A program made the position numbers and the translations under genes. The notes below the pieces were generated by a model that did not search any database, was not told the DNA's origin, and saw only the letters and a list, made by a program, of their open reading frames with translations. Below, piece by piece: positions 3,498 through 36,793 of a stretch of 64,000 nucleotides of DNA. The stretch's first letter is position 1, and each line of letters opens with the position of its first letter. The stretch comes from an uncultured Candidatus Saccharibacteria bacterium (GTDB taxonomy: Bacteria > Patescibacteriota > Minisyncoccia > Phycocordibacterales > JACOZG01), in contig CAZYXJ010000001.1 in NCBI GenBank assembly GCA_964651115.1, positions 213,077 to 277,076 of the forward strand. The letters are read 5' to 3'.

Positions 3498-4475
3498 TTA
3501 AGCGGCCGTCACCAAATTGGGCGGCGTCTGGCCCGCCAGCGCCGCCAAAATATTGTCGGCCGCCAAACGAGCCATGTCGTCTCGGGTCTCAAAAGTAGCG
3601 GAGGCAATGTGTGGCGTTAAAACGACGTTAGGTAAATCCTTCAACCCCGCCGCCAGAGTGGGCTCATTTTCATAAACATCCAAGCCCGCACCGGCGATCT
3701 GGCCAGAACGCAAGGCCTCCACCAGCGCGGCCTCGTCAATCACCGGACCACGAGCCGTATTTACGATTACCGCACTCGGCTTCATTAACGCCAGCCGCTC
3801 GCGATTAATCAAATGGCGCGTCTCGGGCGTCAGATTAACGTGGAGCGAAACGTAATCCGCCACCGTCAACACCTCCTCCACCGTAGACTTAAACTCAGCG
3901 CCAAATTCTTTCTCAAATTCTTCGTTCCGCTTAACGTCAAAGTAGACCACCTTCATGCCAAAACCGCGGGACGCAAAGTGAGCCAACTTAGAACCAATCC
4001 GACCGGCGCCGACAATGCCAAGCGTCCGGCCATAAAGATCTGGGGTCAAAAAAATCATTGGCGCCCAGCCGACATACTTGCCGTCGCGGACAAATTGATC
4101 CGCCTCGACGATCCGCCGCCCCACCGCCACCAGAAGAGCCAAGGCATGCTCAGCGACGCTCTGACTGGTCGAGGGCGCGGGCGTGTTGGTGATCATCACG
4201 CCACGCTTTTTGGCCTCAACCAGATCAACGTTATCAAAACCCACCGCGTAGTTAGCAAAAATCTTCGCTGTCGGGACGGCCTCAAAAACTTCGGCATCAA
4301 TCTTGTCGGTCAAGAGCGGTAAAACGGCGTCATACGGCTTAGCCCGAAGCGCGGTTAATAACTCCTCGCGCGAGAGAAGGCCATCCTTAGGGCTCACGTC
4401 CACCTCGTGCCCCTTCTCGCGCAACATCTGTTCTGCCAAATCCGGAATTTTCCGGGTAATGTAAATTTTTCCCAT
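3498..4475 (-). CDS. D-isomer-specific 2-hydroxyacid dehydrogenase (glycerate/hydroxypyruvate reductase-like)
   Basis: 325 aa; NAD-binding GxGxxG (GIVGAGRIGSKLA); catalytic-domain layout of the D-2-hydroxyacid dehydrogenase family. Confidence 0.75.
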   Translation of the reverse strand: MGKIYITRKIPDLAEQMLREKGHEVDVSPKDGLLSREELLTALRAKPYDAVLPLLTDKIDAEVFEAVPTAKIFANYAVGFDNVDLVEAKKRGVMITNTPAPSTSQSVAEHALALLVAVGRRIVEADQFVRDGKYVGWAPMIFLTPDLYGRTLGIVGAGRIGSKLAHFASRGFGMKVVYFDVKRNEEFEKEFGAEFKSTVEEVLTVADYVSLHVNLTPETRHLINRERLALMKPSAVIVNTARGPVIDEAALVEALRSGQIAGAGLDVYENEPTLAAGLKDLPNVVLTPHIASATFETRDDMARLAADNILAALAGQTPPNLVTAA

Positions 4476-4487
4476 TTATTAATTGTA

Positions 4488-5504
4488 TCATAAGGATTCA
4501 ATTTTTCTTCTAAGTTTCCAACCATTGCCGTGATCCAATAAACCCAAATATGATTGAACTGTCTCCGACTTAACTCCTGCTTTATTTATCCGTTTAAACA
4601 TTCGTCGTCTTGTCATAGTCCGCAGAACACGATGTTTTGAAAATTGGACCCACCCTAGAAAATCAACACCAGAGGAAACTCGCTCGAGAAGAATTTTGTT
4701 GGGATGAAACTCTAACTTCAGTTTCTCTTTTAAGAATTCGGCAATTTCGGGTGCGAGCTTGACTAGACGATCTTTATCGCGACCAACAATGACAAAATCG
4801 TCCGCGTAGCGAAGATAATGCCTCGCTTTCAAGCTATGCTTCATAAACTGATCGAGCTCGTTTAGATAAACATTGGCAAAAAGTTGGGAAGTAAGATTAC
4901 CGAGAGGCAGGCCCTGGCCGGGTACGCCCGAATTAAAACTGTAAATTATTTTCTCGATCAGCCAGATAATACCCTGGTCAGGAATCTTTTTCCTCAATAA
5001 ATCGATCAGTATTGCTCGATCGATGCTAGCAAAAAATTTGCGAATGTCACACTTCAAAACCCAAACCATTTTGGTGTTGTTTCGAGAAAGCTTGGCCGTA
5101 ATTAGGGCAAATTTTTTAATTGCTTTGTGAGTACCTTTTCCGTTGCGACAAGAATAGGAGTCAGAAATAAATCTTGGATGGAAAAACCAGTAAAGCCGGC
5201 GATAAACGGCTCGATGTAAAACCCGATCACGCACGGATGCCTTATGGATCACTCGCCGCTTGGGGTCGTTAATGATGAAAACTTTGTAAGCCGAATGATG
5301 GTATGTCTTAGCCACTAAATCCTCGTGAAGTGAAATAATGTTGGCCATCAGGTTTCGTTCAAATTCCTGCACGTCTTTTCGATTCCGTTTCCCTCTCACG
5401 AATTCCTGCCAGGCCGCGAGCAGATTAGCGAGCGAGACGATATTGTCATATTTTATGGTAGGTGCTATCTTGGCCGAAAATGCTACCGGTAAGCCCCCCC
5501 CCAA
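4488..5504 (-). CDS. diversity-generating retroelement (DGR) reverse transcriptase
   Basis: 338 aa; RT motifs including RYADDFVIV (YADD) and DGR-type motif-4 LGNLTSQ (group II intron RTs have QG...SP); no maturase/X domain; lies next to a TR/VR pair with adenine-specific mismatches. Apparent TTG start is followed immediately by a G9 run. Confidence 0.85.
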   Translation of the reverse strand: MGGGLPVAFSAKIAPTIKYDNIVSLANLLAAWQEFVRGKRNRKDVQEFERNLMANIISLHEDLVAKTYHHSAYKVFIINDPKRRVIHKASVRDRVLHRAVYRRLYWFFHPRFISDSYSCRNGKGTHKAIKKFALITAKLSRNNTKMVWVLKCDIRKFFASIDRAILIDLLRKKIPDQGIIWLIEKIIYSFNSGVPGQGLPLGNLTSQLFANVYLNELDQFMKHSLKARHYLRYADDFVIVGRDKDRLVKLAPEIAEFLKEKLKLEFHPNKILLERVSSGVDFLGWVQFSKHRVLRTMTRRRMFKRINKAGVKSETVQSYLGLLDHGNGWKLRRKIESL

Positions 5505-5513
5505 CCGAAGTTA

Positions 5514-5906
5514 TTGCCTCTTTTGCAAAAGGTGAAGATTGCATACTTATTGTGGTATGAATATTACCAAATTTTGCCAAAAACACATCGACACTCACTC
5601 GGTAAGAAAATTGATACGTTGTGGATCGAGATTATCGAAGCCATTGCGATTGCAAGCTATTTAGGCAAAGGAGAGAAACAACCCTGGGTGAGATTGGCAA
5701 TAAGGAAAACTGATACACTCAAGATATTGCTCTTGGTACTTTGGGAAACTAAATCACTGGATAATAAAAAATATATCGCCCTGTCTTTACCCCTGGAGGA
5801 AATTGGCAAAATGCTTGGCGGTTGGAATGGGCAAATTTTGAGACAATTACAACAAGAACAATTAAAGAAAAACTCTCCCACCAAAGCAGGAGAGAAAATG
5901 AAGTGA
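5514..5906 (+). CDS. Avd-like accessory variability determinant (four-helix-bundle / 23S rRNA IVS protein family)
   Basis: 130 aa basic helical protein; ...PKTHRHSLGKK...LSLPLEEIGKMLGGW parallels BPP-1 Avd (…PRKHGVAREM…VLIAEVGRILGSW). Its 3' end is 2 bp from the TR and its start is 9 bp from the RT start, but it is on the opposite strand. Confidence 0.55.
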   Translation: MPLLQKVKIAYLLWYEYYQILPKTHRHSLGKKIDTLWIEIIEAIAIASYLGKGEKQPWVRLAIRKTDTLKILLLVLWETKSLDNKKYIALSLPLEEIGKMLGGWNGQILRQLQQEQLKKNSPTKAGEKMK

Positions 5907-5907
5907 G

Positions 5908-6029
5908 TTGCGACGAAACGCAAACCAGTCATTGGAGTTACCGTAGTTCTCGAGCCAGTTGAGGTTCGCCTTGCGCCTCGAGTCGTTCCACCAAACGTTG
6001 CACGCCTGGCGATCGCCATCGAAGAAATA
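5908..6029 (-). repeat. DGR template repeat (TR)
   Basis: 122 bp matching 6408-6529 at exactly +500 bp. The 22 mismatches all fall where this copy has T on the plus strand (A on the minus/sense strand); 22 of 27 TR adenines are substituted and no non-adenine position differs. Confidence 0.85.
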
Positions 6030-6388
6030 GTGTAAGGTGTCATCCGAGTCACCATCTCTTGTCGCCAACACAGGACGATTCGAGATCGAATATTATTCGG
6101 CATCTATAATGCCCTAGCACTCTACACCAAGTAGCTTCATTTTTTATTGAAGGATCTGCGTAAATCCTCCGTCGGAAATCGTAATCGCCGACGCTCTCAA
6201 TTTACAGACACTGGTTTCAGTAGCGAGCAACCCTGATCGCCCACATATTCACCTACTCCCGTCTTTAATTTTAGCAAAGAAAAATCCCACACGCGAAGTG
6301 TAGGATTCCATTGTTTACGTTTTGGATTACGTTTGGCAAAAATTGCCGAAGAGCAAAATCCAAAGGATCTGAAAAATCTCCAAGGACC

Positions 6389-7048
6389 TTAGGCCTGAGG
6401 ACGAAGCTTGCGACGAAACGCAAACCAGTCACCGGAGCGACCGCAGACCTCGAGCCAGCAGAGGCGCGCCCCGCGCCCCGAGTCGCCCCACCAAACGCGG
6501 CACGCCAGGCGAACGCCAACGAAGAAACACTCCTTGGTGGCCACCACATACATCGGGTCTAATCCCAGTTCCCGATGAAGAGTGGGATAATGTTCGCCAA
6601 TAGCGAACACTTCTCGTGGGTCAGTGCGCTCGAGTCCGAACTGCTCCGCCCAAGCGATAGCCTTGCTCCAGTTGCCACCCCGTGGGAAGTTGAGAAGGAT
6701 GATTTCCTCCTCTTCTTCCACACCTTCTCCCGGCGGATACTGGTCGCCCACCTTCCGGACGTTGTAGTCCAAAGGAGTGTTGGGACCGGCGGCATTCAGC
6801 GCTTCCGACCACTTGCGTCCTTTGTTGAAGCGAACGCGGATCGTGTGGATGCGAGCGCCCGGTGGCGGGATAAGCGGTAAGCCAATGGTGATCGGTAGCC
6901 CAGCCTCGATTCCATCGAGAACACGACCCAGAGTTCCATCGTCAAGTGCCGTTTGCAGGCGGGCTCGACTCATCTTTTTGTCCCGTACCATTTGAACAAA
7001 CTGTCTTCCCTGACCATCGGTCGCGGTTACAACCTTTTCAGTGGTCAT
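6389..7048 (-). CDS. DGR variable (target) protein, small C-type-lectin-like target
   Basis: 219 aa; VR occupies the last ~40 codons, ending 17 bp before the stop; the C-terminal W/G/R-rich segment is consistent with a CLec/FGE-like ligand-binding fold (not verified); no obvious signal peptide. Confidence 0.7.
   Translation of the reverse strand: MTTEKVVTATDGQGRQFVQMVRDKKMSRARLQTALDDGTLGRVLDGIEAGLPITIGLPLIPPPGARIHTIRVRFNKGRKWSEALNAAGPNTPLDYNVRKVGDQYPPGEGVEEEEEIILLNFPRGGNWSKAIAWAEQFGLERTDPREVFAIGEHYPTLHRELGLDPMYVVATKECFFVGVRLACRVWWGDSGRGARLCWLEVCGRSGDWFAFRRKLRPQA
6408..6529 (-). repeat. DGR variable repeat (VR) at the 3' end of the target gene
   Basis: Counterpart of the TR. Encodes ...RVWWGDSGRGARLCWLEVCGRSGDWFAFRRK versus the TR-encoded NVWWNDSRRKANLNWLENYGNSNDWFAFRRN; TR AAC/AAT/AAA codons correspond to the variable residues. 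Confidence 0.85.
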
Positions 7049-9671: not shown

Positions 9672-10670
9672 TTACTGTCGCTTGCGAGCAATCGCCCGGC
9701 CGACCGCGGCCTTAATACTGCCCACGCCTAAACCATAATGATTAAGCAGTTCGTCGGGCGTACCAGACTGACCAAATTGATCATCAATCCCCACCCGGAC
9801 CAGCGGCACCGGGCATTGTTCGCCCAAAACCTCCGCCACCGCGCCACCCAAGCCGCCCGCGCGCTGATGCTCTTCCACCGTGATCACGGCGCCAGCGCCA
9901 GCTGCCCAGACCACCGCCTCCGTATCCAGGGGCTTAATCGTATGCATATTAATCACCGCTACTTCCGTCCCCGCCTCAGCCAGTTCCGCCGCGGCCGTCA
10001 AAGCAGAATAGACCATCTGACCACAGGCAATAATCGTTACTTGCGGCTTTTCTGGTTGGCGGAGCACATTGGCCCGACCAATTAAAAAGGGTGACTCCTC
10101 CGTTGTCACCACCGGCGACTTTTCGCGCGCGAGACGCAGATAAGCGGGGCCAACATAAGACGCCAGCGCCAGCGTCGCCTTGCGCGCCTCAATCGCGTCG
10201 GCCGGTACCACCACCGTCATCCGGGGTACGACACGCATGATCGCAATATCTTCGATCGCCTGATGCGTCCCACCATCTGGCCCCACGGAAACGCCAGCAT
10301 GCGAACCAACCACCTTAACGTTGCGATCGTTGTAACAAATCGTCGTCCGAATTTGTTCCCAATTACGACCAGGACTAAACATCGCGTACGAAGTTAAAAA
10401 AGGGATCTTGCCCATCGCCGCCATGCCGCTGGCGACGCTCGCCAAGTTCTGCTCCGCCACGCCAATCTCCACGTAACGCTCGGGAAATTTGTTTTTAAAT
10501 AAATGCATCTGCGTTGACTCTACTAAGTCGGCACACAAACCAACCACTTCGGCATTGGCCTCCGCGGCGGCGAGCAACCCTTCACCAAAGCCCTTGCGAA
10601 TCGGCACTCGCTCCACGTCGAGCTTAAAAAGTTTGGGATTTAATTTTTGACCTTCAACTAAATTATTCAT
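9672..10670 (-). CDS. transketolase, C-terminal (pyrimidine-binding) subunit
   Basis: Pyrimidine-binding plus C-terminal domains of a split transketolase; ATG at 10670 overlaps the stop of the upstream N-terminal subunit gene by 8 nt. Confidence 0.8.
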   Translation of the reverse strand: MNNLVEGQKLNPKLFKLDVERVPIRKGFGEGLLAAAEANAEVVGLCADLVESTQMHLFKNKFPERYVEIGVAEQNLASVASGMAAMGKIPFLTSYAMFSPGRNWEQIRTTICYNDRNVKVVGSHAGVSVGPDGGTHQAIEDIAIMRVVPRMTVVVPADAIEARKATLALASYVGPAYLRLAREKSPVVTTEESPFLIGRANVLRQPEKPQVTIIACGQMVYSALTAAAELAEAGTEVAVINMHTIKPLDTEAVVWAAGAGAVITVEEHQRAGGLGGAVAEVLGEQCPVPLVRVGIDDQFGQSGTPDELLNHYGLGVGSIKAAVGRAIARKRQ

Positions 10671-17697: not shown

Positions 17698-18370
17698 GGT
17701 CCGGATTTTCCTGTGTGATTAGTTCGTAAGGAATAGCCTCGTCCGGCGCACACAGCTTGTACGGAAGCTGTTCATGAGTAAAATCAACAATTTCCTTAGT
17801 TCTTTTATCTTTCCATTTTGTGGAAATCTTTTTCATAAGTTCAACCTCTTCGCCCTGCAGAAGATCAAGCTTTTGACGGAGGGCTCCTGCACCAATTGAC
17901 ACGAGCATTGCGTCACCCTTGCGGTCTATTGTGATCTTCCCCTCATCTTCAAGTTCGTCAATCGCACGGAAATACGGATCGGGTACCGGACCGTAGGCAC
18001 GACGTAAGTACTGCATTCCGCTCATGCTTTCTAATTTTTCGTAATACCAAGCAAAATCGGCAAGGTAGAGAAGCTTTGCGAGTTTTGTTTTTGGCACCCG
18101 CCCATCAGTTGATGCAGGAAATTTAAGATACGCAATAATCATCTGCTTGTATTTTTCATACTGTGGAGCTGTTACTTTTGAAAGTTCTTCGATTGAAATA
18201 CCATACAATTCGCATAGTTTTTCTGCTTCCCGTAACGTCATTTCGCGTATTCCACGCTCTACGGCCATATAGGATTGGCGCGAGAGTCCAAGTTTTTCGG
18301 CTACTACTAACTGCGAAATACCCCTCTTTGTTCTAAGGGCTTTTATAAATGATGCGTATTTGGTGCTCAT
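17687..18370 (-). CDS. HTH-XRE transcriptional regulator fused to a Panacea (DUF4065/SocA-like) antitoxin domain
   Basis: N-terminus LRTKRGISQLVVAEKLGLSRQSYMAVERG is a Cro/C1-type HTH; C-terminus has KLAKLLYLADF...YLRRAYGPVPD characteristic of Panacea antitoxin domains; start set to the ATG at 18370 (MSTKYASF). Confidence 0.6.
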   Translation of the reverse strand: MSTKYASFIKALRTKRGISQLVVAEKLGLSRQSYMAVERGIREMTLREAEKLCELYGISIEELSKVTAPQYEKYKQMIIAYLKFPASTDGRVPKTKLAKLLYLADFAWYYEKLESMSGMQYLRRAYGPVPDPYFRAIDELEDEGKITIDRKGDAMLVSIGAGALRQKLDLLQGEEVELMKKISTKWKDKRTKEIVDFTHEQLPYKLCAPDEAIPYELITQENPDHVY

Positions 18371-18727: not shown

Positions 18728-18760
18728 CACACAAAACCGCACAATGTGCGGTTTTGTGTT
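18728..18760. terminator. bidirectional rho-independent terminator
   Basis: cacaaaaccgcaca/tgtgcggttttgtg perfect palindrome abutting the restriction-modification gene stop. Confidence 0.45.
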
Positions 18761-21700
18761 ATAAGGCCACCTCATCAATTTCTCTCATAATTTTGTCTGT
18801 TTCCACCAAAGCAACAATAATTTTTTGATAGTGTTCAATATCGCCATTTGAAAGCATGCGACCCTTGCGGTCTTTCAACCACTTCTGCGCGGGTTGGTAG
18901 CCGCCGATGTAGAACGACCATGCGATCTCGGGGACGTTGCCAAAATACTGCGTTGCGTTGATGTATACACTGTCGCCCTTGCGAGTGATTTTCTCTACCT
19001 TGTTCGTGCCGACCTCGGGGTAGGTAGTGATGGGGGTGCGTACCGCCGCTGATTCGAGCAGGTGAAGTTCCCGGAGTTGTTTACCGAGCGCCGCGAGTGC
19101 GGCGAACTGCGCCTTATCTTTCGGATATGGGACGCGGGGGAAATCTATTCTAAGAAACTCCTTGTACTTCTCACGGTAGTTTGGTGAGTGCAGAACGGCG
19201 TAGACATAATCAAAGATATCCTCGGGCGTTGGTTCTTTTCCGACCAAAGAGGCAATCTGCTTCACAATGTCGCGGTTGAGGTTCGGTACACGAGTGCCGT
19301 CCCCCGCGTGTAAATAAAGTGGGACGTTCATGGCGTTTGTGGCTGTCGTTCCAGACAAGAATATTGCTTCGGAAATGGTATTTGTAACAAAGACGTGGTT
19401 GTAGTCAGCATCGCGGACGCTTTTTGTGACCAAAAGTCCGAGATTAGATCCTTGTAGGTAATGCTTCATTATTTTGTCTACCGGACGCCAAACTAGCGAT
19501 GAGTGGTAAAAGATCAGACGATCATCAAAAGGACGATATGCGATCTCTTTTACAAAGTTCGATAATTCATTTTCTTTCCGCAAAGCATCTCGAGCTTTCA
19601 ACGCATCCCAACCTTTTTTATCGCTGATACCAACCTCGGCGCACAATGCCCTTTGTGTGTTTGTTGTTGAGTTACGGAAACGTTCCGCGTTGGAAGCAAG
19701 ATTCTGGGTGTCACTGCCAATAACAAAGGCGTCTCTGGCTGTAACCACCCCATTCCCGTTTTCAATAAAGAGGTCTTTGATAGAAATGTTTTTTATGTAT
19801 TGAGCTTTTGTTTTCTCATCTCGCACTGTCCATTCGTAGTTTTGCGACTTGGGAGCGAGCTCGTGCCAGTGCATGGAGCCAAGTTCCATTTCATTGAGAC
19901 ACTCGAACTTCGTTCGCTTCGTTCCGAAACAGTCGGCGCGATAGACGTTGGCGAGAGAGCCCGAGCGTTTTCCTTTGCGGCGTACGCCAATAAGAATCGA
20001 GACGCCCTGTTTGATAGCGAACACGTTTTCATCTTTGCCACCATCGGGGGCTTTTTCTTTCTTGTTGGAATTTCCGTGGAGGTCGAGAACGTAAATCTCG
20101 CTGAACGTCTCCATGAGGTGATAGCGCATACCCCGAAACGTTGGGTTGTCGATGTACCCGTGTGCAGTAATCATTCCGACAATACCCTCACCGGTTTGTT
20201 CGATAAGACTCTCGGCGAAGCGAATGAACTTCACGTAGTCATCGTTTATCCATTTGCTGTTGCGTTCTTTGAGCTTTTGCGAAGTACCCGGCTCAACCTT
20301 GTAGACATCGTGCCCTGTGTACTCCTTGTTACTTGACTCTCCTGCGTAGGGGGGATTTCCTATCACAATCATTATCGGTGTGTCGTTCTTGATGCGAGCA
20401 GCGGCACGACTCTCCTCACTAATACTCTGTGCGAGACCGAGCATGCCAAAGAGCGAATCGTCAGGGCGCTCCGCTTTCTCAAGAGAGTTCGTGAGATACA
20501 CGCCGATACGGTCTTTGAAATCTTTTGCACCGGACTCGCGGAGGGTGGCGGCAAGTTTGAGGTGAGCGATGGTATAGGGCGCCATCATAAGCTCGAAGCC
20601 GTGGAGACGAGGGAGGAGGTCTTCATTCACGTAGCCACTGAATCGTCCTTCCTGTCCGGCGAATGTGCGACGGATGAGACGTATCGTCTCGTTAAGGAAG
20701 GTGCCAGTGCCAGTTGCTGGATCGAGCACCTGCACTTTGTGAATGGTGTCCTTCACTTTCTTGCCCTGCACCATTCGCGTGATATCTATCTTCTTCGTGT
20801 CGGCGAGACCTTGGGGTAGGTCGAAGTCGCGTTTGAGAATGGCATCAACCGAGCGCACGATGAAGTGCACGACGGCGGGTGGTGTGTAATACGCACCAAG
20901 CTTCTTTCGCTCTACTGGGTCGTATGCTTTGAGAAAGTCCTCGTAAAAGTGGATGACAGGGTCGGGCGCCGCCTGTTCTGCGCCCCATAGGTCTTGCTTG
21001 TAAATCTGTTGCATGAGTGCGCGGACATTAGCGTTGCCGAACACTTTGCAGAGGTCGTCGACGATTGGCTTCAATCGGTCGTCAAAGTCAGCACCGGCGA
21101 TGTGGTCGAAGAAGCGACGCAGGAGAGGGTTTGAGTGCGGGATAAGCTCACGCGCTTCTGCTCGTGTGAAGTCTTTGGGGGATTCATCGTGATACCTCGC
21201 GACGAAAAGACCGTACACGAGCGTCTGCGCATACATGTCGGTGAAGTCGTCGAGCGAAAGATCGTGGATGAGTTGCGATTTGAACGCCTCGTAGATGTCG
21301 AGGAGAGGTTTATTCTTGGGACTATCCGTTTTAAGAAAGCGCAGCAGATTGGCGCGGAGGCGCTTGCCGTTCTCTCCCATGATTTCGGCGAGGCGGTTCG
21401 CACGGCGCACCGGCTCCGCCGCATCTTCGAGGAAGGCTCGAATTGTGGTTTCTAAAAGGGCATATGAGTTTCCGTCCGGTGAAAGTGTCTCAAGGTCACT
21501 TATTACGATGGGGTCGCAATACGCTCCGCCATGCTTGTAGAAGCGAAACTCGAGATAATTCGTAAGGATGAGGTTAGCATAGCCAAAGTAACGTTTGAGT
21601 TGTTCCCCCTTGACGATATCGTCGAGGTTCTCCCCGAGACGCTTGGTCTCGACATAGCCGACTGGAAATCCGCCCTTGATGAGGGCAAAGTCGGGGGCAC

Positions 21701-21863
21701 CAAACTCGATCTTTCCCGGCTCATTCACCGCGTCCACGTCGGGAAGCATTGCCTCAAGTAGCACCTTAAGTGCGGGGCGGTGCTGGTGTTCTAGATCTTT
21801 GGTACCCACGCTGGAAGTCGCACTACGAGTTCGTGCAATTGCAGAAAGGTATGTTTCTAGCAT
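18759..21863 (-). CDS. Type IIL/IIG restriction-modification enzyme (MmeI family): fused endonuclease, N6-adenine methyltransferase and target-recognition domain
   Basis: About 1034 aa from the ATG at 21863 (MLETYLS...). N-terminal PD-(D/E)xK-like D...ETK nuclease region; gamma-class amino-MTase motifs GAYYTP (X), VLDPATGTGTFL (I) and VIGNPPYAG (IV); long C-terminal TRD. Architecture matches MmeI/BREX-PglX-like enzymes. Confidence 0.7.
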   Translation of the reverse strand: MLETYLSAIARTRSATSSVGTKDLEHQHRPALKVLLEAMLPDVDAVNEPGKIEFGAPDFALIKGGFPVGYVETKRLGENLDDIVKGEQLKRYFGYANLILTNYLEFRFYKHGGAYCDPIVISDLETLSPDGNSYALLETTIRAFLEDAAEPVRRANRLAEIMGENGKRLRANLLRFLKTDSPKNKPLLDIYEAFKSQLIHDLSLDDFTDMYAQTLVYGLFVARYHDESPKDFTRAEARELIPHSNPLLRRFFDHIAGADFDDRLKPIVDDLCKVFGNANVRALMQQIYKQDLWGAEQAAPDPVIHFYEDFLKAYDPVERKKLGAYYTPPAVVHFIVRSVDAILKRDFDLPQGLADTKKIDITRMVQGKKVKDTIHKVQVLDPATGTGTFLNETIRLIRRTFAGQEGRFSGYVNEDLLPRLHGFELMMAPYTIAHLKLAATLRESGAKDFKDRIGVYLTNSLEKAERPDDSLFGMLGLAQSISEESRAAARIKNDTPIMIVIGNPPYAGESSNKEYTGHDVYKVEPGTSQKLKERNSKWINDDYVKFIRFAESLIEQTGEGIVGMITAHGYIDNPTFRGMRYHLMETFSEIYVLDLHGNSNKKEKAPDGGKDENVFAIKQGVSILIGVRRKGKRSGSLANVYRADCFGTKRTKFECLNEMELGSMHWHELAPKSQNYEWTVRDEKTKAQYIKNISIKDLFIENGNGVVTARDAFVIGSDTQNLASNAERFRNSTTNTQRALCAEVGISDKKGWDALKARDALRKENELSNFVKEIAYRPFDDRLIFYHSSLVWRPVDKIMKHYLQGSNLGLLVTKSVRDADYNHVFVTNTISEAIFLSGTTATNAMNVPLYLHAGDGTRVPNLNRDIVKQIASLVGKEPTPEDIFDYVYAVLHSPNYREKYKEFLRIDFPRVPYPKDKAQFAALAALGKQLRELHLLESAAVRTPITTYPEVGTNKVEKITRKGDSVYINATQYFGNVPEIAWSFYIGGYQPAQKWLKDRKGRMLSNGDIEHYQKIIVALVETDKIMREIDEVAL

Positions 21864-21962
21864 GTTTTGAATTCCTGTATAAATAGCCTTCGGCCATATT
21901 ACCACCAAGCACAGGAGTTCACCACTCCAACGGCCCGGCTCTCTAAGTAACAGAAAAGACCC

Positions 21963-21996
21963 TTGCTTAAAAGCAAGGGTCTTGATTAGCGATTCG
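21963..21996 (-). terminator. rho-independent terminator
   Basis: agacccttgctt/aagcaagggtct 12-bp stem followed on the minus strand by a T-rich tract; downstream of the PEP-CTERM gene. Confidence 0.45.
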
Positions 21997-22008
21997 GGGG
22001 GGTAAGAA

Positions 22009-22584
22009 CTACGTTTTACGCCGGCGGCGAGCGCACAGTGGCGCCGCCAACCCAAGGAGCACGAGGCTCGTCGGCTCCGGCAAGCCGGAGCCCCGAAGAA
22101 AGATGAGGTTGGTACGGAACTCGTCCGCACCAAACTCTAACCAATTCCCCACGGCGCTGGGGTCTGAACTCCAACTGAGCCGCTCCAACTGCAAGGCATA
22201 ATAGCCCGACAGTCGAGGCTCTAGCATCGCACCAACATGGAAGCGCCTCTTCTCCCCCTCCGCTATTAAGTAAAAGTCTTGCCCATCACTGGGGGAAGAA
22301 CTTGTACTCAAAAACGCCATCATCGGCGATCCTACCCCCGGGGTGGCGAAGTTGAAGAACGAATACTGGAGCAGCGGTGATGGCCTGGCGGACAGCCGTG
22401 GAACATAGACATCCCCGGAGATGGCGATGATATCGAACCACATCCGGAAGTAACCGATGCTCCCCTCCTCGAAGTCTTTCTGCCAGACTTCCGCCTGACT
22501 GGAAACCAACGTCGCCACCGGCGACGCTACCGCAACGGAACACGTCACCAACGCCGCCGCCACAAAGGAAAACAGACGGTTCAT
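22009..22584 (-). CDS. secreted protein with PEP-CTERM-like sorting signal
   Basis: 191 aa; N-terminal signal peptide; C-terminus ...GLPEPTSLVLLGLAAPLCARRRRKT is a PEP motif, hydrophobic helix and Arg cluster; AAGGGG RBS upstream. Confidence 0.5.
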   Translation of the reverse strand: MNRLFSFVAAALVTCSVAVASPVATLVSSQAEVWQKDFEEGSIGYFRMWFDIIAISGDVYVPRLSARPSPLLQYSFFNFATPGVGSPMMAFLSTSSSPSDGQDFYLIAEGEKRRFHVGAMLEPRLSGYYALQLERLSWSSDPSAVGNWLEFGADEFRTNLIFLRGSGLPEPTSLVLLGLAAPLCARRRRKT

Positions 22585-26204: not shown

Positions 26205-27863
26205 TTAGTAATCCATCCCACCCATACCCGGATGAGCATGACCGCCGGCCGCGGCCGACTTCTCCTCCGGCTCATCAGTCACCGCCACCTCGGTGGTTAA
26301 GAGGATGGCCGCCGCACTGGCCGCGCGCTCGATGCCCGTGCGCGTCACCTTCACCGGATCAACGATGCCCGCCGCAAACATATCCGGCACAATCTCGTCA
26401 GCGTTAGCATCATAACCCTCATTGCCCTTGGCTGATTTGATCTTCTCCACAATCACTTCCCCATTATCTTTGCCCGCGTTAATGGCAATTTGTCGGAGCG
26501 GCGCCTCTAGCGCCTTAAGAACGATCTTAACGCCCGTAGCAAACTCGTCAGCAATATCGGGCGAGGTGGGCTTAAGCGTCTTACTACCAACCTTGGCTCC
26601 GGCCCGTACCAGGGCCGTGCCACCACCAGAGACAATACCCTCTTCGATGGCCGCCTTCGTCGCCTCGACGGCATCTTCGACTTTTAATTTTAAATACTTC
26701 ATCTCCGCTTCGGTCGAGGCGCCCACGCGGATCACGGCAACGCCACCCGACAACTTACCCAAGCGCTCCCGCAGCTTTTCCTTATCATAAGACGATTCGG
26801 TCGTCTCCAGCTGAGTCTTGATCTGGGCCACCCGCTCCTGGATGTCGGCCTTCTTGCCGGCCCCGCCCACGATCGTGGTGCCATCCTTAGTCGCCACCAC
26901 CTTGCGCGCTCGACCCAACTGCTTAAGCTCGACCGTTTCTAACTTCAAGCCCAAACTCTCCGAGATCAATTGACCGCCCGTCAGCGCGGCAATGTCCTCG
27001 AGCATCTCTTTGCGACGATCGCCATAACCCGGCGCCTTAATCGCGAGAGTGTGGAAGATTCCCCGGATCTTATTTAGCACCAGGGTAGGCAGCGCTTCGC
27101 CATCAACATCTTCCGCGATAATCACCAACTCTTTCTTACCGGTCTGGGCCAACTTTTCCAGCAGAGGCAAGATGTCTTTAATTGACGAGATCTTACGGTC
27201 GGTGATCAAAATTGACGCGTCATTATAGACGGCCTCCATCCGCTCCGAGTCAGTGATCATGTAGGGCGAAACGTAACCCTTATCAAACTGCATACCTTCC
27301 ACCAACTCACTCTCGACGCCAAAAGATTGAGACTCCTCCACCGTCACCACGCCGTCCTTGCCGACTTGCTCAATCGCCTCGGCAATAATGGCGCCAAACT
27401 CTTCGCTCTCCGCCGAGATGGCCGCTACTTGCCGGATCTCTTCGCTCGACTTAATCGGCTTAGCCAGTGATTTGAGCGCTTCCACTACTTCGCGCGCGGC
27501 GGCCTCAATCCCCAAGCGGACGCCCATGGCATTAGCGCCAAGCGTCGTCTTTTTAAAACCTTCTTCGATAATCGCCTGAGCCAAAACGACGGCCGTTGTC
27601 GTCCCATCACCGGCCATGTCGTTGGTCTTGCCGGCGACGTCTTTAATAATCTCCGCGCCCAAATTTTCGACGCGATTCTTGAGAGTAATTTCTTTCGCGA
27701 TCGAAACGCCGTCGTTAGTAATCGTCGGCGCGCCAAAACCTTTATCCAAAATGACGTTGCGACCCTTGGGGCCGATGGTAATTTTTACCGCGCTTGCGAC
27801 CGCGTCCACGCCCCGCTTAATCGCCTGCCGCGCCTCATCTCCGTACAGAATTTGTTTTGCCAT
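26205..27863 (-). CDS. groL: chaperonin GroEL
   Basis: 552 aa; [13 protein letters not shown]-terminus; GGM repeat C-terminus. Confidence 0.95.
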
Positions 27864-30317: not shown

Positions 30318-32096
30318 ATGTCTACTCGCAATCGTCCTCCCCGTTCTGGCCGCAATGGTCGCGGTCCCCGCGCCCCCGAGCGTTCGCGCGCTGGCACCGG
30401 CACGGTGCCAGCGCTCATCCCCGGCAACGTCCGCATCATCACCTTGGGCGGCGTTGAGGAGATTGGCAAAAACATGACGGCCATCGAATTCGGTAACGAC
30501 ATTGTCGTCATCGACGCCGGCCTCCAATTCCCTGACGAAAATCAGCCGGGCGTTGATTACATTATTCCCGACACCACCTATCTCGAAGAAAATAAGGGTC
30601 GCATCCGCGGCATGATCGTCACTCACGGTCACCTCGATCACATCGGCGGCATTCCTTTCATCATGCCCAAGCTTGGCAATCCGACGCTTTACACCCGCAA
30701 CCTAACGGCGATCATGATTAAAAAACGGCAAGAAGAATTTGCTCACTTGCCCAAGTTCCCGATCGAGATTATCGAAAACGATAGTCGCATCCGACTCGGC
30801 GATTTGTCGATCCGCTTCTTTGGCGTCACTCACACCATCCCCGACTCAATGGGTATTATCGTCGAGACGCCCTACGGCGGCATTGTTTGCCCTGGCGACT
30901 TTAAACTCGAACACGAAGGCGGCGTGCCCAGCGAGCGCGAACTTAATTCCTACAAAATCTTTGACGACTATCCCGTCCTGGCGCTGATGGCCGACTCAAC
31001 CAACGTCGAAAACCCCGGCTTTTCCGTTCCGGAAAAAGAAGTTCACAAGGGCTTGGAAGAAATTATCAAAAACGTTTCGGGCCGCCTGGTGATCGGACTC
31101 TTTGCTTCTCAACTCGAACGCATCATCAAGGTCATCGAGATTGCGGAAAAATATGGCCGCCACATCGTCGTTGAGGGCCGCAGCATGAAGACCAATATTG
31201 AAGTGGCTCAACTGGCCGGCATGCTTAAGCCCAAGAAAGACACGATTATTCCCGCTCAAGAATCTGGCTCTTACCCCGATAACAAAATTTTAGTCCTGGC
31301 GACCGGCGCCCAAGGCGAGGAGTTTGCGGCTTTAATGCGCATGGCCACGGGCACTCACAAGGCCTTTAAGTTTAAGGCGGGCGACACTGTCGTGCTCTCC
31401 TCCTCGATCATCCCAGGCAACGAACGCACGGTAGAAAAACTCAAAGACAATATCGCCCGCCAAGGCGCCCGAATCGTCCACTACCGCAGTTCGGAAGTCT
31501 ACATCCACTCATCCGGTCACGGCAATCGCGGCGAAATTGAGTGGCTCCACAAAAAACTCAAGCCTCGCTTCCTCATCCCCGTTCACGGCAATCATTACCG
31601 TCTCCGCCTGCACGGCGAACTAGGAGTAGAAAACGGCATTCCGGAAGAGAACGTGGTCATCCCTGACGACGGCATGGTGATCGACATCGTTGATGATGGT
31701 CAGAAGATCACGCCACTTAAGCAAACCGCCTCGAGCAAGCTCGTGATGGTGGACGGCCTCGGAACCAACAACATCCAAGAAGTCGTCATCCGCGACCGCC
31801 AGATGCTCGCCCAAGATGGGATGTTTGTGATCATCGCCATCATCGATGTCAAAACTGGCAAGGTTCGCAAATCGCCCGACATCATCTCCCGCGGCTTTAT
31901 CTATCTCAAAGAATCACAAGATCTGTTGCGCCACGTCCGCATGGTCACAAAAAAGAAAATCGAGGAGGCCACCGCCCAGATGCATCCGATCAACTTTGAT
32001 TACGTTAAGAACGTCGTCCGCGAAGAAGTGGGTCGCTTCCTCTTCCAAAAAACTCATAATCGTCCAGTTATCCTCCCCGTCCTGATTGAGGTGTAG
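30318..32096 (+). CDS. rnj: ribonuclease J
   Basis: 592 aa; metallo-beta-lactamase HxHxDH motif (THGHLDHIGG), beta-CASP and C-terminal domains. Confidence 0.85.
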   Translation: MSTRNRPPRSGRNGRGPRAPERSRAGTGTVPALIPGNVRIITLGGVEEIGKNMTAIEFGNDIVVIDAGLQFPDENQPGVDYIIPDTTYLEENKGRIRGMIVTHGHLDHIGGIPFIMPKLGNPTLYTRNLTAIMIKKRQEEFAHLPKFPIEIIENDSRIRLGDLSIRFFGVTHTIPDSMGIIVETPYGGIVCPGDFKLEHEGGVPSERELNSYKIFDDYPVLALMADSTNVENPGFSVPEKEVHKGLEEIIKNVSGRLVIGLFASQLERIIKVIEIAEKYGRHIVVEGRSMKTNIEVAQLAGMLKPKKDTIIPAQESGSYPDNKILVLATGAQGEEFAALMRMATGTHKAFKFKAGDTVVLSSSIIPGNERTVEKLKDNIARQGARIVHYRSSEVYIHSSGHGNRGEIEWLHKKLKPRFLIPVHGNHYRLRLHGELGVENGIPEENVVIPDDGMVIDIVDDGQKITPLKQTASSKLVMVDGLGTNNIQEVVIRDRQMLAQDGMFVIIAIIDVKTGKVRKSPDIISRGFIYLKESQDLLRHVRMVTKKKIEEATAQMHPINFDYVKNVVREEVGRFLFQKTHNRPVILPVLIEV

Positions 32097-33829: not shown

Positions 33830-36793
33830 TTATTTCATCATTCGGCTGAGGCGGCAGCCCAAACAATCCTTTTCACCACAGCCCCGCTTAACAAATTCGC
33901 CCGACACGATCTCCCCCGTCACCCGATCAAGCAGGTCACGGACCGTCGCCTCATCGGCAGGCGGAATTTCGAAAGCTTCGCGCTTAAATTTTCCACTCTC
34001 ACTCGGCTCCACAAAATCCACCATCGCGCTAGCCACCTTAAAGCGTCCGCGCTCGCACTCTTCGATCAAAATTTTATAGAACACCAACTGACGATAAATA
34101 TCTCCCGTCGAATTTTTGGTCGTACCTAAAATTTCGTTACGACTCTTGGGCGACATTGTTTTATAGTCCACGATCTGTACCGTCTCGGGACTCAGAAATT
34201 CGATCTTATCGATCTTGCCCACCAATTTGAGATCGGGCGTGAGATGACAACCCGGAACTTTATACTCGTTAAGAATCGATCGCGGCCAGCCGCCGACTGG
34301 CGAAGTAGACCAAGTTTGAAACCAGCCAGCCAGCGCTTCTCTACCCCGCACCTGCGCCGCCGCCAAATCTCTTTCCGAAAAAGCTTCATGCTGAACCAGA
34401 CGCTCAAAACTGGCCAACAACGATTCGACGGTCACCTCACCGCCCTCACGATAACGATTAAAAAAAACTTCGAGCGTCCCGTGGATCGCCGTACCATACA
34501 TGGTATGACGATTGCGGATCTGGATCACCCGCAACAAATTAGTAAATAAATAATCAAGCGGGCAGCGCAAATAATTATTTAACCCCGTCGCCGAGAGACC
34601 CTGCTCGCGAAAGCGGCCCGCCAAATAAGCCGGATCAAAAATTGACGCCCCCTGATATTGCCGCGGTGTAAAAATCAAATTGCACTCGGGACGCACCTGG
34701 CTCTCCCACTCCGCCATCGGCTCAAACACCAAGCGCTCCGGATCCAACTCCTCAATAAACTGGCTCGGCAAAAGTGGCCGCCCATCCGATCCCTCAGATG
34801 AGTAACTGAGCGCGACAGCCAAACGCGCGCGAGTGAGCGCCACGTAAAAAAGGCGGCGCTCATCCTCCACCGGATCGGCGGCCGTTGGCACGCCCGCGCG
34901 CGTCGGGATCTTAAAGTATTGCGGCGAACGACGACTCCCCCAACCATTATCCGAAACCCCGATCACGTAGACGTAATCAAACTCCAAACCCTTGGACTTG
35001 TGCGCCGTCATCAACTCCACACCGCTTTGGCCTGCCTCCTGACGAGTCTTGATCCCGCGATGATGCGTCGCCAAACGATTAAGAAATTGAATAAAGTCCG
35101 CCAACCTAAAATTATGATTACTCCGCGAGAGCGCCACCCCCTCGTCGTAGAGCGCGTGTAATTTGCTCAACACCTCCTGGGCTTCGGGCAAACCCAAAAC
35201 ATGCTCCAAATAACCCGACTCCCGCACCACCACCGCGTACAAATCCAAAAAACTCTGATTGGCGGCCAAGCGGGCCCAGCGCTCCAACTTCTGCGACCAA
35301 GATTTTAATTTTTTCTTACGGCTGGTCCGCAAGCGCTGCCAGAGCGAACCGCCGGTCGCCTCCTCCCGCAGGGCATAAATTTCTAGAATATCCACTGCCA
35401 CAAAATCGAGATGCAAAAACTCCAGCAACAAGCGATCATCACCAAAACCATTAATCGCTCGCAAGAGAACAATTAATTTTTGCACCTCAATATCTTCTAA
35501 AATATTAGAGTCGGAACGGACCACGAAAGGGACTCCCGCCCGCTCAAAATAATCAATGATCGGTAGCGAGTCGCCATTAGTGCGATAAAGCACGGCCAAC
35601 TGCTCCGGCGGCACACCGGCGGCCAGCTTTGACTTAACCTCTTCTACTAGGTACAACAATTCGTGAGCGGGTTTAGTAAAGGATCTAACTTTAATCGGCA
35701 GGGACGCTCGCTCGGAGCGCGCCACCAGGGGCGACAAACTCTCAGCCGGCAAAGCCTGACTCTTGCTGATCACACTCTGGGCCGCATCCAAAATAAGCTG
35801 GGTCGAACGATAATTATCCGTTAACGTAATTAGCGTCGCTTGAGGAAAAAGTTTTTTAAAATAATTAAAATTATCCAGCGAGGCGCCTTGAAATTGGAAG
35901 ATGGCCTGCTTCTCATCGCCGACAATAAACAAGTTGGGCTGATCGTGGAAACTAGACAGCAGTTCCAACAAACGATTTTGTGACTGATTGGCATCCTGGT
36001 GCTCGTCAGCCAGCACATATTGATATTCTTCTTGAATCTGCAGACGGAAGTCGCTGTCTTCGCCAAGAGCGCGATTAACCTCTAGCAACATATCGCCAAA
36101 ATCGTAGAGACGACGGGTGGCCAACTTGGTTTCGTAAGCCGTGTAAAGTCGGACTAGCTCCTCAGCTTTGGTAATATTGGTCCGCAAAACTTGATACTTA
36201 CCCTTAATCTGGCCCGCGTAGGCCCCTTTCTCGTGACGCAAATCCGGCACGCTCTCGAGCGCCTTCTGCTCGAGCTCAACAATCGCGCGCAGGTCGTCGG
36301 GGCTGACATTTTCGCGCTTGAGTCGATCAATTTCTTGCTGGACCGGAAAGAGATAGTGGAATTGGTCGCCATAGGGTCGGAGGAGCGAGAGATCGCTCTC
36401 CAAAATTGCCTCCTCCAAAATCTGAATCTGATCAATCGGTAAAGCATTGATCGCTCCCACAATACGTGGGAATTTTTCGGGATAACGTCTAATCAACTCG
36501 TTAGCAAAACTATGGAAGGTGTGAATGGGGATCCGGTAGGCGCGACTGCCCACCAACGACACCAGTCGCCGGCGCATCGCGTGGGCGCCGGCATTAGTAA
36601 AAGTTAGCGCCAAGATCGCGTCGGCGGGCGTGTCGGTCTGACGCAAAATGTTGGCGATCCGCAGAGTTAACACTTGAGTCTTGCCCGTGCCAGGACCAGC
36701 CACCACCATCACCGGACCCTCAATCAGATCAACGGCCCGACGTTGAGCGGGATTAAGACGTTGATAGTGTTGCTCAAATTGATCCACCGACAT
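33830..36793 (-). CDS. UvrD/PcrA-type ATP-dependent DNA helicase with C-terminal PD-(D/E)xK (RecB/Cas4-like, Cys-cluster) nuclease domain
   Basis: 987 aa; Walker A AGPGTGKTQVLT; UvrD motifs; C-terminal nuclease with Cys cluster (CGEKDCLGC); AddA-like architecture with no AddB partner in the window. Confidence 0.75.
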   Translation of the reverse strand: MSVDQFEQHYQRLNPAQRRAVDLIEGPVMVVAGPGTGKTQVLTLRIANILRQTDTPADAILALTFTNAGAHAMRRRLVSLVGSRAYRIPIHTFHSFANELIRRYPEKFPRIVGAINALPIDQIQILEEAILESDLSLLRPYGDQFHYLFPVQQEIDRLKRENVSPDDLRAIVELEQKALESVPDLRHEKGAYAGQIKGKYQVLRTNITKAEELVRLYTAYETKLATRRLYDFGDMLLEVNRALGEDSDFRLQIQEEYQYVLADEHQDANQSQNRLLELLSSFHDQPNLFIVGDEKQAIFQFQGASLDNFNYFKKLFPQATLITLTDNYRSTQLILDAAQSVISKSQALPAESLSPLVARSERASLPIKVRSFTKPAHELLYLVEEVKSKLAAGVPPEQLAVLYRTNGDSLPIIDYFERAGVPFVVRSDSNILEDIEVQKLIVLLRAINGFGDDRLLLEFLHLDFVAVDILEIYALREEATGGSLWQRLRTSRKKKLKSWSQKLERWARLAANQSFLDLYAVVVRESGYLEHVLGLPEAQEVLSKLHALYDEGVALSRSNHNFRLADFIQFLNRLATHHRGIKTRQEAGQSGVELMTAHKSKGLEFDYVYVIGVSDNGWGSRRSPQYFKIPTRAGVPTAADPVEDERRLFYVALTRARLAVALSYSSEGSDGRPLLPSQFIEELDPERLVFEPMAEWESQVRPECNLIFTPRQYQGASIFDPAYLAGRFREQGLSATGLNNYLRCPLDYLFTNLLRVIQIRNRHTMYGTAIHGTLEVFFNRYREGGEVTVESLLASFERLVQHEAFSERDLAAAQVRGREALAGWFQTWSTSPVGGWPRSILNEYKVPGCHLTPDLKLVGKIDKIEFLSPETVQIVDYKTMSPKSRNEILGTTKNSTGDIYRQLVFYKILIEECERGRFKVASAMVDFVEPSESGKFKREAFEIPPADEATVRDLLDRVTGEIVSGEFVKRGCGEKDCLGCRLSRMMK

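Follow-up and report, generated by a model that had tools for sequence, protein, structure and literature searches.

Evidence for a complete chromosomal diversity-generating retroelement of the Patescibacteria type, with a G-tract at the junction of avd and the reverse transcriptase gene

We analyzed a 64,000-nt stretch of contig CAZYXJ010000001.1 (positions 213,077 to 277,076, assembly GCA_964651115.1; hereafter the window), of which positions 4488 to 7048 almost certainly constitute a complete chromosomal diversity-generating retroelement (DGR) of the type found in Patescibacteria, or candidate phyla radiation (CPR). Judging by the coordinates, strands and profile matches of its parts (Table 1), the cassette is ordered as a target gene ending in a variable repeat (VR), a template repeat (TR), a reversed avd gene and a reverse transcriptase (RT) gene. 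The open reading frames (ORFs) of target, avd and RT are all intact, about 360 nt of non-coding DNA separate the target gene from the TR, and avd points away from the start of the RT gene and towards the TR. An earlier note on this DNA, made from the sequence alone, had called the locus a complete DGR, and the substitution footprint, the RT, Avd, the fold of the target and the related loci all agree with that call. The order that it gave, target(VR), TR, Avd and RT, stands in that all of these parts are present, and needs one amendment: it left the strand of avd unstated, which is the plus strand, opposite to that of RT, TR and VR. A single element of the cassette, a G-tract at the avd/RT junction, may be new.

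Table 1. Features of the DGR cassette (window positions)
Feature	Position	Strand	Remarks
DGR reverse transcriptase, 338 aa, TTG start	4488..5504	-	RVT_1; motifs LGNLTSQLFANVY and YADD
G9 homopolymer (C9 on the plus strand)	5494..5502	-	Occupies all 9 nt that separate the divergent start codons of avd and RT
avd (accessory variability determinant), 130 aa, TTG start	5514..5906	+	Opposite strand to RT, TR and VR
Stem-loop, 9 bp, UUUG tetraloop (5873-5894), then UUUUU	5868..5894	-	Presumed Avd-binding; terminator-like; antisense to avd codons NSPTKAGE
3' box CUUCAUUUU	5895..5903	-	Pairs with the 5' box; antisense to K-M-K, the final codons of avd
Template repeat (TR)	5908..6029	-	122 nt, 27 adenines
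Conserved non-coding 5' domain of the presumed DGR RNA	6030..6145	-	Contains the 5' box AAAAUGAAG (6135-6143)
Terminator-like hairpin	6281..6309	-	About 80 nt past the target stop; terminator scan and DNA fold; weak, consensus-level only
Target (variable-protein) gene, 219 aa	6389..7048	-	N-terminal three-helix region and C-type-lectin-like domain; VR is the last ~41 codons
Variable repeat (VR)	6408..6529	-	Target codons 174-214; begins in phase 0 of the ORF

The pattern of substitutions between the two repeats carries this reading. Automated repeat detection lists the pair as 5908-6027 and 6408-6527, spaced by 500 nt, and direct comparison of the minus strands gives a length of 122 nt. The claim that the copies differ at 22 positions, each an adenine of the copy at 5908, was reproduced exactly: 22 of the 27 TR adenines are changed (14 A>G, 5 A>T and 3 A>C) and none of the 95 other positions is, a distribution with a hypergeometric probability of 8.6e-20, and the similarity ends abruptly at both repeat edges. 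The adenines are placed at first (10) and second (17) codon positions and never at the third, and all seven asparagine codons of the TR (six AAC, one AAT) are substituted in the VR, so that the proposed mapping of AAC codons to variable residues holds, as do both translations quoted in its support. AAG at residue 193 is the only stop-prone codon in a template that permits about 10^14.6 protein variants. The VR itself is in frame and free of stop codons; as had been proposed, it forms the C-terminus of a 219-aa ORF. No second VR was found within the window in a search with adenines masked. One could suppose that the repeats are an ordinary partial gene duplication, or a product of gene conversion, that diverged by normal mutation, and the TR does lie within a 69-codon open frame that reads like a target C-terminus. 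We give this supposition practically no chance, considering that all 22 differences fall on adenines of one copy and none on a third codon position, and that dozens of independent loci, as well as a single population, show the same pattern; the substitution spectrum thus refutes ordinary duplication.

The RT is the second line of evidence for a DGR. The protein matches Pfam RVT_1 (9.8e-24), retains YADD and every residue that is invariant in its lineage, and ends 40 residues past the thumb with neither a maturase nor an endonuclease domain, which bears out the earlier description of an RT with the DGR motif LGNLTSQ and no maturase. It scores 360 bits on the phage RT family phrog_1423, and its best match in the PDB is the RT of a Bordetella phage (bRT, 8ub7_A; 150 bits, E 6e-43), in an alignment that spans YADD and sets IGSLTSQLFANVY of bRT against LGNLTSQLFANVY of the window RT. 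We also weighed the possibility that the protein is an RT of a group II intron, a retron or a defence-associated system (DRT), next to a 122-nt repeat that is an unrelated duplication. By name, its best NCBIfam match is group_II_RT_mat (145 bits), and the DRT models of PADLOC match it with E-values down to 1e-33, both of which are expected from the motifs that RTs share. All of these models nevertheless stay far below their curated cut-offs: TIGR04416 reaches 145 bits against a cut-off of 300, in an alignment confined to its RT part (21-276 of 353), Retron St85 reaches 59 against 235 and Drt3a 68 against 200, while the best PADLOC match is a generic RT model. Structures of group II, retron and other RTs score at most 65 bits with the window RT, 85 bits less than bRT, and an Rfam scan of the whole window returned one tRNA and no intron RNA or retron non-coding RNA. 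Since a non-DGR RT would also leave the adenine-only footprint, Avd and the conserved cassette unexplained, we regard this possibility as highly improbable; the sub-cut-off scores and the bRT match effectively refute a group II, retron or DRT identity. The assignment to a clade is based on profile and structure-library scores.

The sequences that flank the TR show conserved elements of a presumed DGR RNA. In 46 of 46 non-redundant related loci, a hairpin of 7-14 bp followed by UUUUG(U)UUU begins 12-13 nt after the TR. From 12 copies a covariance model was built; it has a single strong match in each locus, always directly after the TR, and its match in the window (5864-5902; 52.4 bits, E 7e-11) scores like those of active relatives. 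As variable stem lengths made for a poor MAFFT alignment, the stem-loop was aligned by fitting the copies to the covariance model itself; in this alignment, which is thus fitted to the model, 97.2% of cells are paired, against 23-62% when slid, and six of nine pairs show compensatory changes, a value that none of 500 shuffles reached. The 5' box AAAAUGAAG and the 3' box CUUCAUUUU are also listed as an inverted repeat by automated repeat detection, and the closing duplex between them was tested by counting pairs on a concatenated alignment: 85.6% of cells are paired across 40 loci, against 46-59% when slid, and 11 cells carry double changes, a modest covariation that was likewise not equalled in 500 shuffles. 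Conservation extends over the 110 nt that separate the 5' box from the TR, even among loci with unrelated targets, and the hairpins there covary by eye. An Avd-binding stem-loop, most commonly of 9 bp with a tetraloop, and a "cPRT Stop" duplex, in which sequences up- and downstream of the TR pair, have been described from the structure of the bRT-Avd-RNA complex, and both elements were predicted in 207 DGRs, including CPR ones (bioRxiv 10.1101/2023.10.23.563531). The stem-loop and closing duplex of the window match these two elements in position and form. Elsewhere in the window, the stem-loop model has a weak second match at 18030-18091 on the plus strand (17.2 bits, E 0.64), most likely by chance.

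The inversion of avd places the 3' box and the stem-loop antisense to its final codons; the last 11 codons and the stop (NSPTKAGEKMK-stop, window 5868-5906) are therefore dual-coded. Plausibly, the antisense RNA motif explains the conserved ...NSPxKAGEK tail of these Avd proteins. Avd itself matches the PHROG family "Avd protein of DGR" over its full length (E 1.7e-12), and its orthologues in sister loci carry PF22296. A single-sequence AlphaFold2 model, of low confidence, is all-helical with four long helices.

The target protein belongs to a family of 571 clusters at 50% identity for which there is no Pfam model, and no Pfam family matches the 219-aa protein. A sequence-profile search against solved structures returned nothing, and Foldseek against the PDB and viral libraries returned nothing significant. 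Its predicted structure is confidently modelled as a C-type-lectin fold with the VR in the C-terminal strands, as the earlier note had anticipated. Homologues combine a conserved body with a hypervariable C-terminus on the fixed scaffold C.VWW..S.R.A.L.W......WFAFRK, and clusters at 90% identity include proteins that are identical save in the VR. The protein looks soluble, with no signal peptide evident by eye. Solved variable proteins of DGRs with a C-type-lectin fold include Mtd, TvpA, the nanoarchaeal AvpA and TaqVP of Thermus (cited in PMC8144416); the fold class predicted for the window target agrees with theirs, with the VR in C-terminal strands and loops.

By homology with the Bordetella phage system, we propose the following mechanism. 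A non-coding RNA of about 280 nt would be made from the minus strand, from around position 6145 to around 5868, and would comprise the structured 5' domain, the 122-nt TR, the 3' box paired back to the 5' box, the 9-bp stem-loop and a U-run. RT and Avd would bind this RNA, with a presumed contact between Avd and RNA, and the complex would prime a cDNA close to the TR 3' end, copying the template faithfully except opposite adenines. The A-mutagenised cDNA would then replace the homologous VR, with the invariant 23-nt 3' stretch GACTGGTTTGCGTTTCGTCGCAA as the presumed homing anchor. As a result, 17 codons (about 10^14.6 possible proteins) would be recoded; they lie in the C-terminal strands of the small target with its C-type-lectin fold and presumably form a ligand-binding surface. 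The cassette has much in common with the prototype, the DGR of Bordetella phage BPP-1 (mtd-avd-TR-brt; PDB 8ub7): the RTs are homologous over 288 residues, including IGSLTSQLFANVY and YxDD, both systems have Avd and an A-specific transfer from TR to a VR at the C-terminus of a C-type-lectin-fold protein, and both have the duplex of sequences up- and downstream of the TR as well as a stem-loop just 3' of it (the "cPRT Stop" and Avd-binding positions). In the window, by contrast, avd follows the TR on the opposite strand, which makes the RNA beyond the 3' end of the TR antisense to the coding part of avd, and the space between target and TR is taken up by the ~360 non-coding nt instead of avd. 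The cassette is, furthermore, cellular rather than phage-borne, and its target is a small soluble-looking protein instead of a tail fibre. Finally, its VR is not directly followed by a GC-rich inverted repeat, and no difference is visible between the sites at the ends of VR and TR that are known as IMH (initiation of mutagenic homing) and IMH*.

The host belongs to the Patescibacteria: GroEL, encoded at window positions 26205-27863, is 78-79% identical to GroEL of Patescibacteria, Kaiserbacteria and Nomurabacteria, and the target homologues found in reference genomes all come from metagenome-assembled genomes (MAGs) of Patescibacteria, so that the earlier attribution to the CPR is upheld. According to Wu et al. 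2018 (PMC5758913), 90% of CPR DGRs have an architecture termed B3, TR-(avd)-RT, which hardly occurs outside the CPR. Roux et al. 2021 (PMC8144416) found DGR clade 2 only in Patescibacteria and characterise it as cellular and aquatic, with targets reported to have no transmembrane or other known domains. The window cassette shares with these groups the gene order with avd inverted between TR and RT, the chromosomal location, the Patescibacteria host, and a single adjacent target of about 200 aa whose VR is C-terminal and in which neither a membrane anchor nor a domain can be recognised; there is no difference in kind. Given these features and the GroEL, we therefore consider it a standard member of the CPR B3/clade 2 group. 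DGRs have already been catalogued in thousands, and the window adds one more well-delimited example, which is useful as a clean CPR B3 reference with exact TR/VR boundaries and RNA elements at single-nucleotide resolution. Further reference value lies in the antisense overlap of avd with the presumed Avd-binding motifs, and in the confident lectin-fold model for a target family that lacks a Pfam model.

Related loci allowed us to examine the behaviour of the cassette across its lineage. Three of the loci with target homologues (L013, L014 and L016) carry the same cassette of target, TR, avd on the opposite strand and RT, and their TR/VR mismatches all fall on adenines (19/19, 19/19 and 20/20, respectively). 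A metagenome scan based on the RT gave more than 571 relatives, of which 80 were fetched, with RTs 53-62% identical to that of the window; about 45 non-redundant loci share the layout. In essentially all fetched loci with enough flanking sequence, the VR lies 363-549 nt upstream of the TR, followed by reversed avd and RT, with A-specific mismatches. Their targets are small proteins with C-terminal VRs, for which no homology to the window target was detected. On viral contigs, only four RTs are at least 45% identical to that of the window; the other 76 belong to other DGR clades, at 31-36% identity. Substitutions unrelated to TR adenines in homologous loci, which the earlier note had named as grounds for rejecting its reading, were looked for, and the related loci change at TR adenines only.

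Evidence of activity within the lineage comes from a sister population and from one further contig. The sister population is represented by four genotypes (L017, L020, L021 and L022) with an identical TR and a 489-nt gene body without a single variable site, and within its VR all 25 variable columns fall on TR adenines, next to one 3-nt indel. In L035, a JGI contig, 17 assembler N calls are confined to the VR (398-467), mostly at positions templated by TR adenines, which is an assembler-level trace of population heterogeneity. The pattern in the sister population and these N calls together indicate that the lineage is active in nature. The indel in the sister population is a 3-nt insertion in the VR allele of L017 (around position 5590), relative to L020-L022, that adjoins an AAC-templated site; length changes opposite AAC were noted by Wu et al. 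2018 (PMC5758913).

Several observations weigh against reading the window locus as a complete and working DGR. Avd matches three independent DGR-Avd models, but its matches to the NCBIfam and Pfam ones, although full length, are below the cut-off: NCBIfam DivGenRetAVD reaches 54 bits (E 1.6e-14) against a cut-off of 80, and Pfam bAvd 38.6 bits (E 1.6e-9) against 40. Neither sequence nor profile searches matched Avd to a solved Avd structure. DNA folding and a terminator scan found only weak hairpins and no GC-rich inverted repeat directly after the VR; a solid hairpin appears only at 99-127 nt beyond it. Such inverted repeats follow the VR in about 34% of DGRs and are not universal. Furthermore, no IMH/IMH* difference is visible because the last 23 nt of TR and VR are identical, with divergence right after CGCAA; identical IMH and IMH* occur in some DGRs (Wu et al., PMC5758913), and both this and the lack of the inverted repeat have been recorded for other DGRs. 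The sole start of the RT is a TTG fused to the G9 run, with no ATG, and a promoter scan found no sigma-70-like promoter for the gene. Lastly, no other record was found of the exact window target or the exact Avd, and the only other assembly of the window RT, the Logan contig L183 (corresponding to window 3644-5957), is 100% identical and ends inside the TR, so that it provides no second VR allele for the window locus. A break inside the TR would be expected if the TR/VR repeat or heterogeneity of the VR disrupts the assembly graph.

The start codon and the missing promoter also bear on the possibility that the cassette is a fossil or currently silent, with a VR that was diversified formerly and an RT that is now unexpressed, through decay or through an OFF state of the slippage-prone G9 tract. 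Relatives show that cassettes do fall into disrepair: the decayed cassette of L006 (10942-11326) retains a TR whose 17 mismatches all fall on adenines, and two thirds of avd at the C-terminal side, yet lacks the N-terminus of avd and any RT within 10 kb, and in L013 the VR (9913-10031) has an in-frame TAG where the TR has AAG, so that a DGR-type substitution truncates the target. In addition, nine of the 14 genome loci with a target homologue (L001, L002, L004, L005, L007-L010 and L012) have no RT, avd or TR within 6-10 kb. In the window, however, the three ORFs are intact, the RT keeps YADD and all lineage-invariant residues, the VR is in frame and free of stop codons, the RNA elements are undamaged, with scores similar to those in active relatives, and the present G9 length leaves the TTG in frame. 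We therefore consider a silent cassette unlikely, and current activity of the window's own copy of the DGR plausible. The stop in L013 arises at the same AAG codon (residue 193) that is the only stop-prone codon of the window TR, and the nine homologues without a cassette sit in housekeeping neighbourhoods and could be either orphan targets served in trans or remnants of cassette loss.

The G-tract at the avd/RT junction sets this lineage apart from other DGRs in our comparison. The G9 run forms codons 1-4 of the RT ORF (TTG GGG GGG GGC) and is the longest G/C homopolymer in the window. Among the 84 related loci with enough sequence at the junction, 71 carry G6-G11 there (mode G10) and nine more carry (GT)6-14, for 80 of 84 together. 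Runs of at least eight G occur 65 times at the junction and three times in the remainder of 472 kb, and none of the 76 out-group phage DGRs of other clades has a junction tract. The length of the tract varies even between very close relatives, differing in four of six clusters of near-identical tract-bearing loci: (GT)7/6/12 in the L017-L021 population, G10/G9 in L035/L038, G11/G10 in L092/L096 and G10/G9 in L049/L097. L035 and L038 differ over 2.4 kb by nothing but the tract indel and the N calls in the VR, and L092 and L096 have two differences in 4.1 kb, one of which is the tract indel. The second assembly of the window tract, in L183, has the same length. While differences in the length of G-runs may be assembly noise, those in (GT)n cannot be.

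Simple sequence repeat (SSR) contingency loci, in which slipped-strand mispairing switches genes on and off, include poly-G tracts within ORFs and promoters of Neisseria, and the (TA)n repeat between the divergent hifA and hifB genes of Haemophilus. The junction tract resembles such loci (PMC5084427, PMC3315296) in its make-up, either 8-11 G/C residues in a row or repeats of a dinucleotide, and in its placement, at an ORF's 5' end or in the gap separating divergent genes. It is likewise site-specific, and genomes that are otherwise near-identical differ in its length. It differs from such loci in that the tract lies outside the ORF in most relatives. In most loci, an in-frame ATG follows 7-25 nt downstream of the tract, which places the tract in the 5' leader; in the window, the only start of the RT is the TTG whose G opens the run, and the tract is thus inside the ORF. 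Since it directly follows this only start codon, a change in length by one G would take the start out of the RT frame. The tract could accordingly be a slipped-strand phase-variation switch acting on the RT, and perhaps on avd, a reading that is favoured by the occurrence of two repeat types at one site and by the length polymorphism, and that we put forward as possible though doubtful. It may instead be a Shine-Dalgarno-like or other sequence element; a Shine-Dalgarno mimic sits poorly with the replacement of the G-run by (GT)n in nine loci. Our literature search, which did not extend to Paul et al. 2017, the key paper that first surveyed CPR DGRs, found nothing linking DGRs to switching mediated by homopolymers or repeats.

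To our knowledge, SSR switches have no precedent in this host or this class of gene. If the tract does act as a switch, a whole CPR lineage would have phase-variable DGRs, in which a stochastic switch is superimposed on a targeted hypermutator. Gating of RT expression by the tract would explain how very small symbionts keep the burden of their own mutagenic RT in check, and would represent an easily testable regulatory layer for DGRs.

The base composition of the cassette is uneven: the GC content of the RT-avd-TR block (window 4400-6200) is 40-46%, compared to 55-60% in the flanks and the target gene, and in relatives the highest GC content is consistently that of the target gene body, which often exceeds both the RT block and the host flanks by 10-20 points. 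Other genes in the window encode a 1124-aa Type ISP restriction-modification enzyme with Type_ISP_C and N6_Mtase domains (18759-22133, minus strand), RNase J (30318-32096) and an AddA/UvrD-PDDEXK helicase-nuclease (33830-36793).

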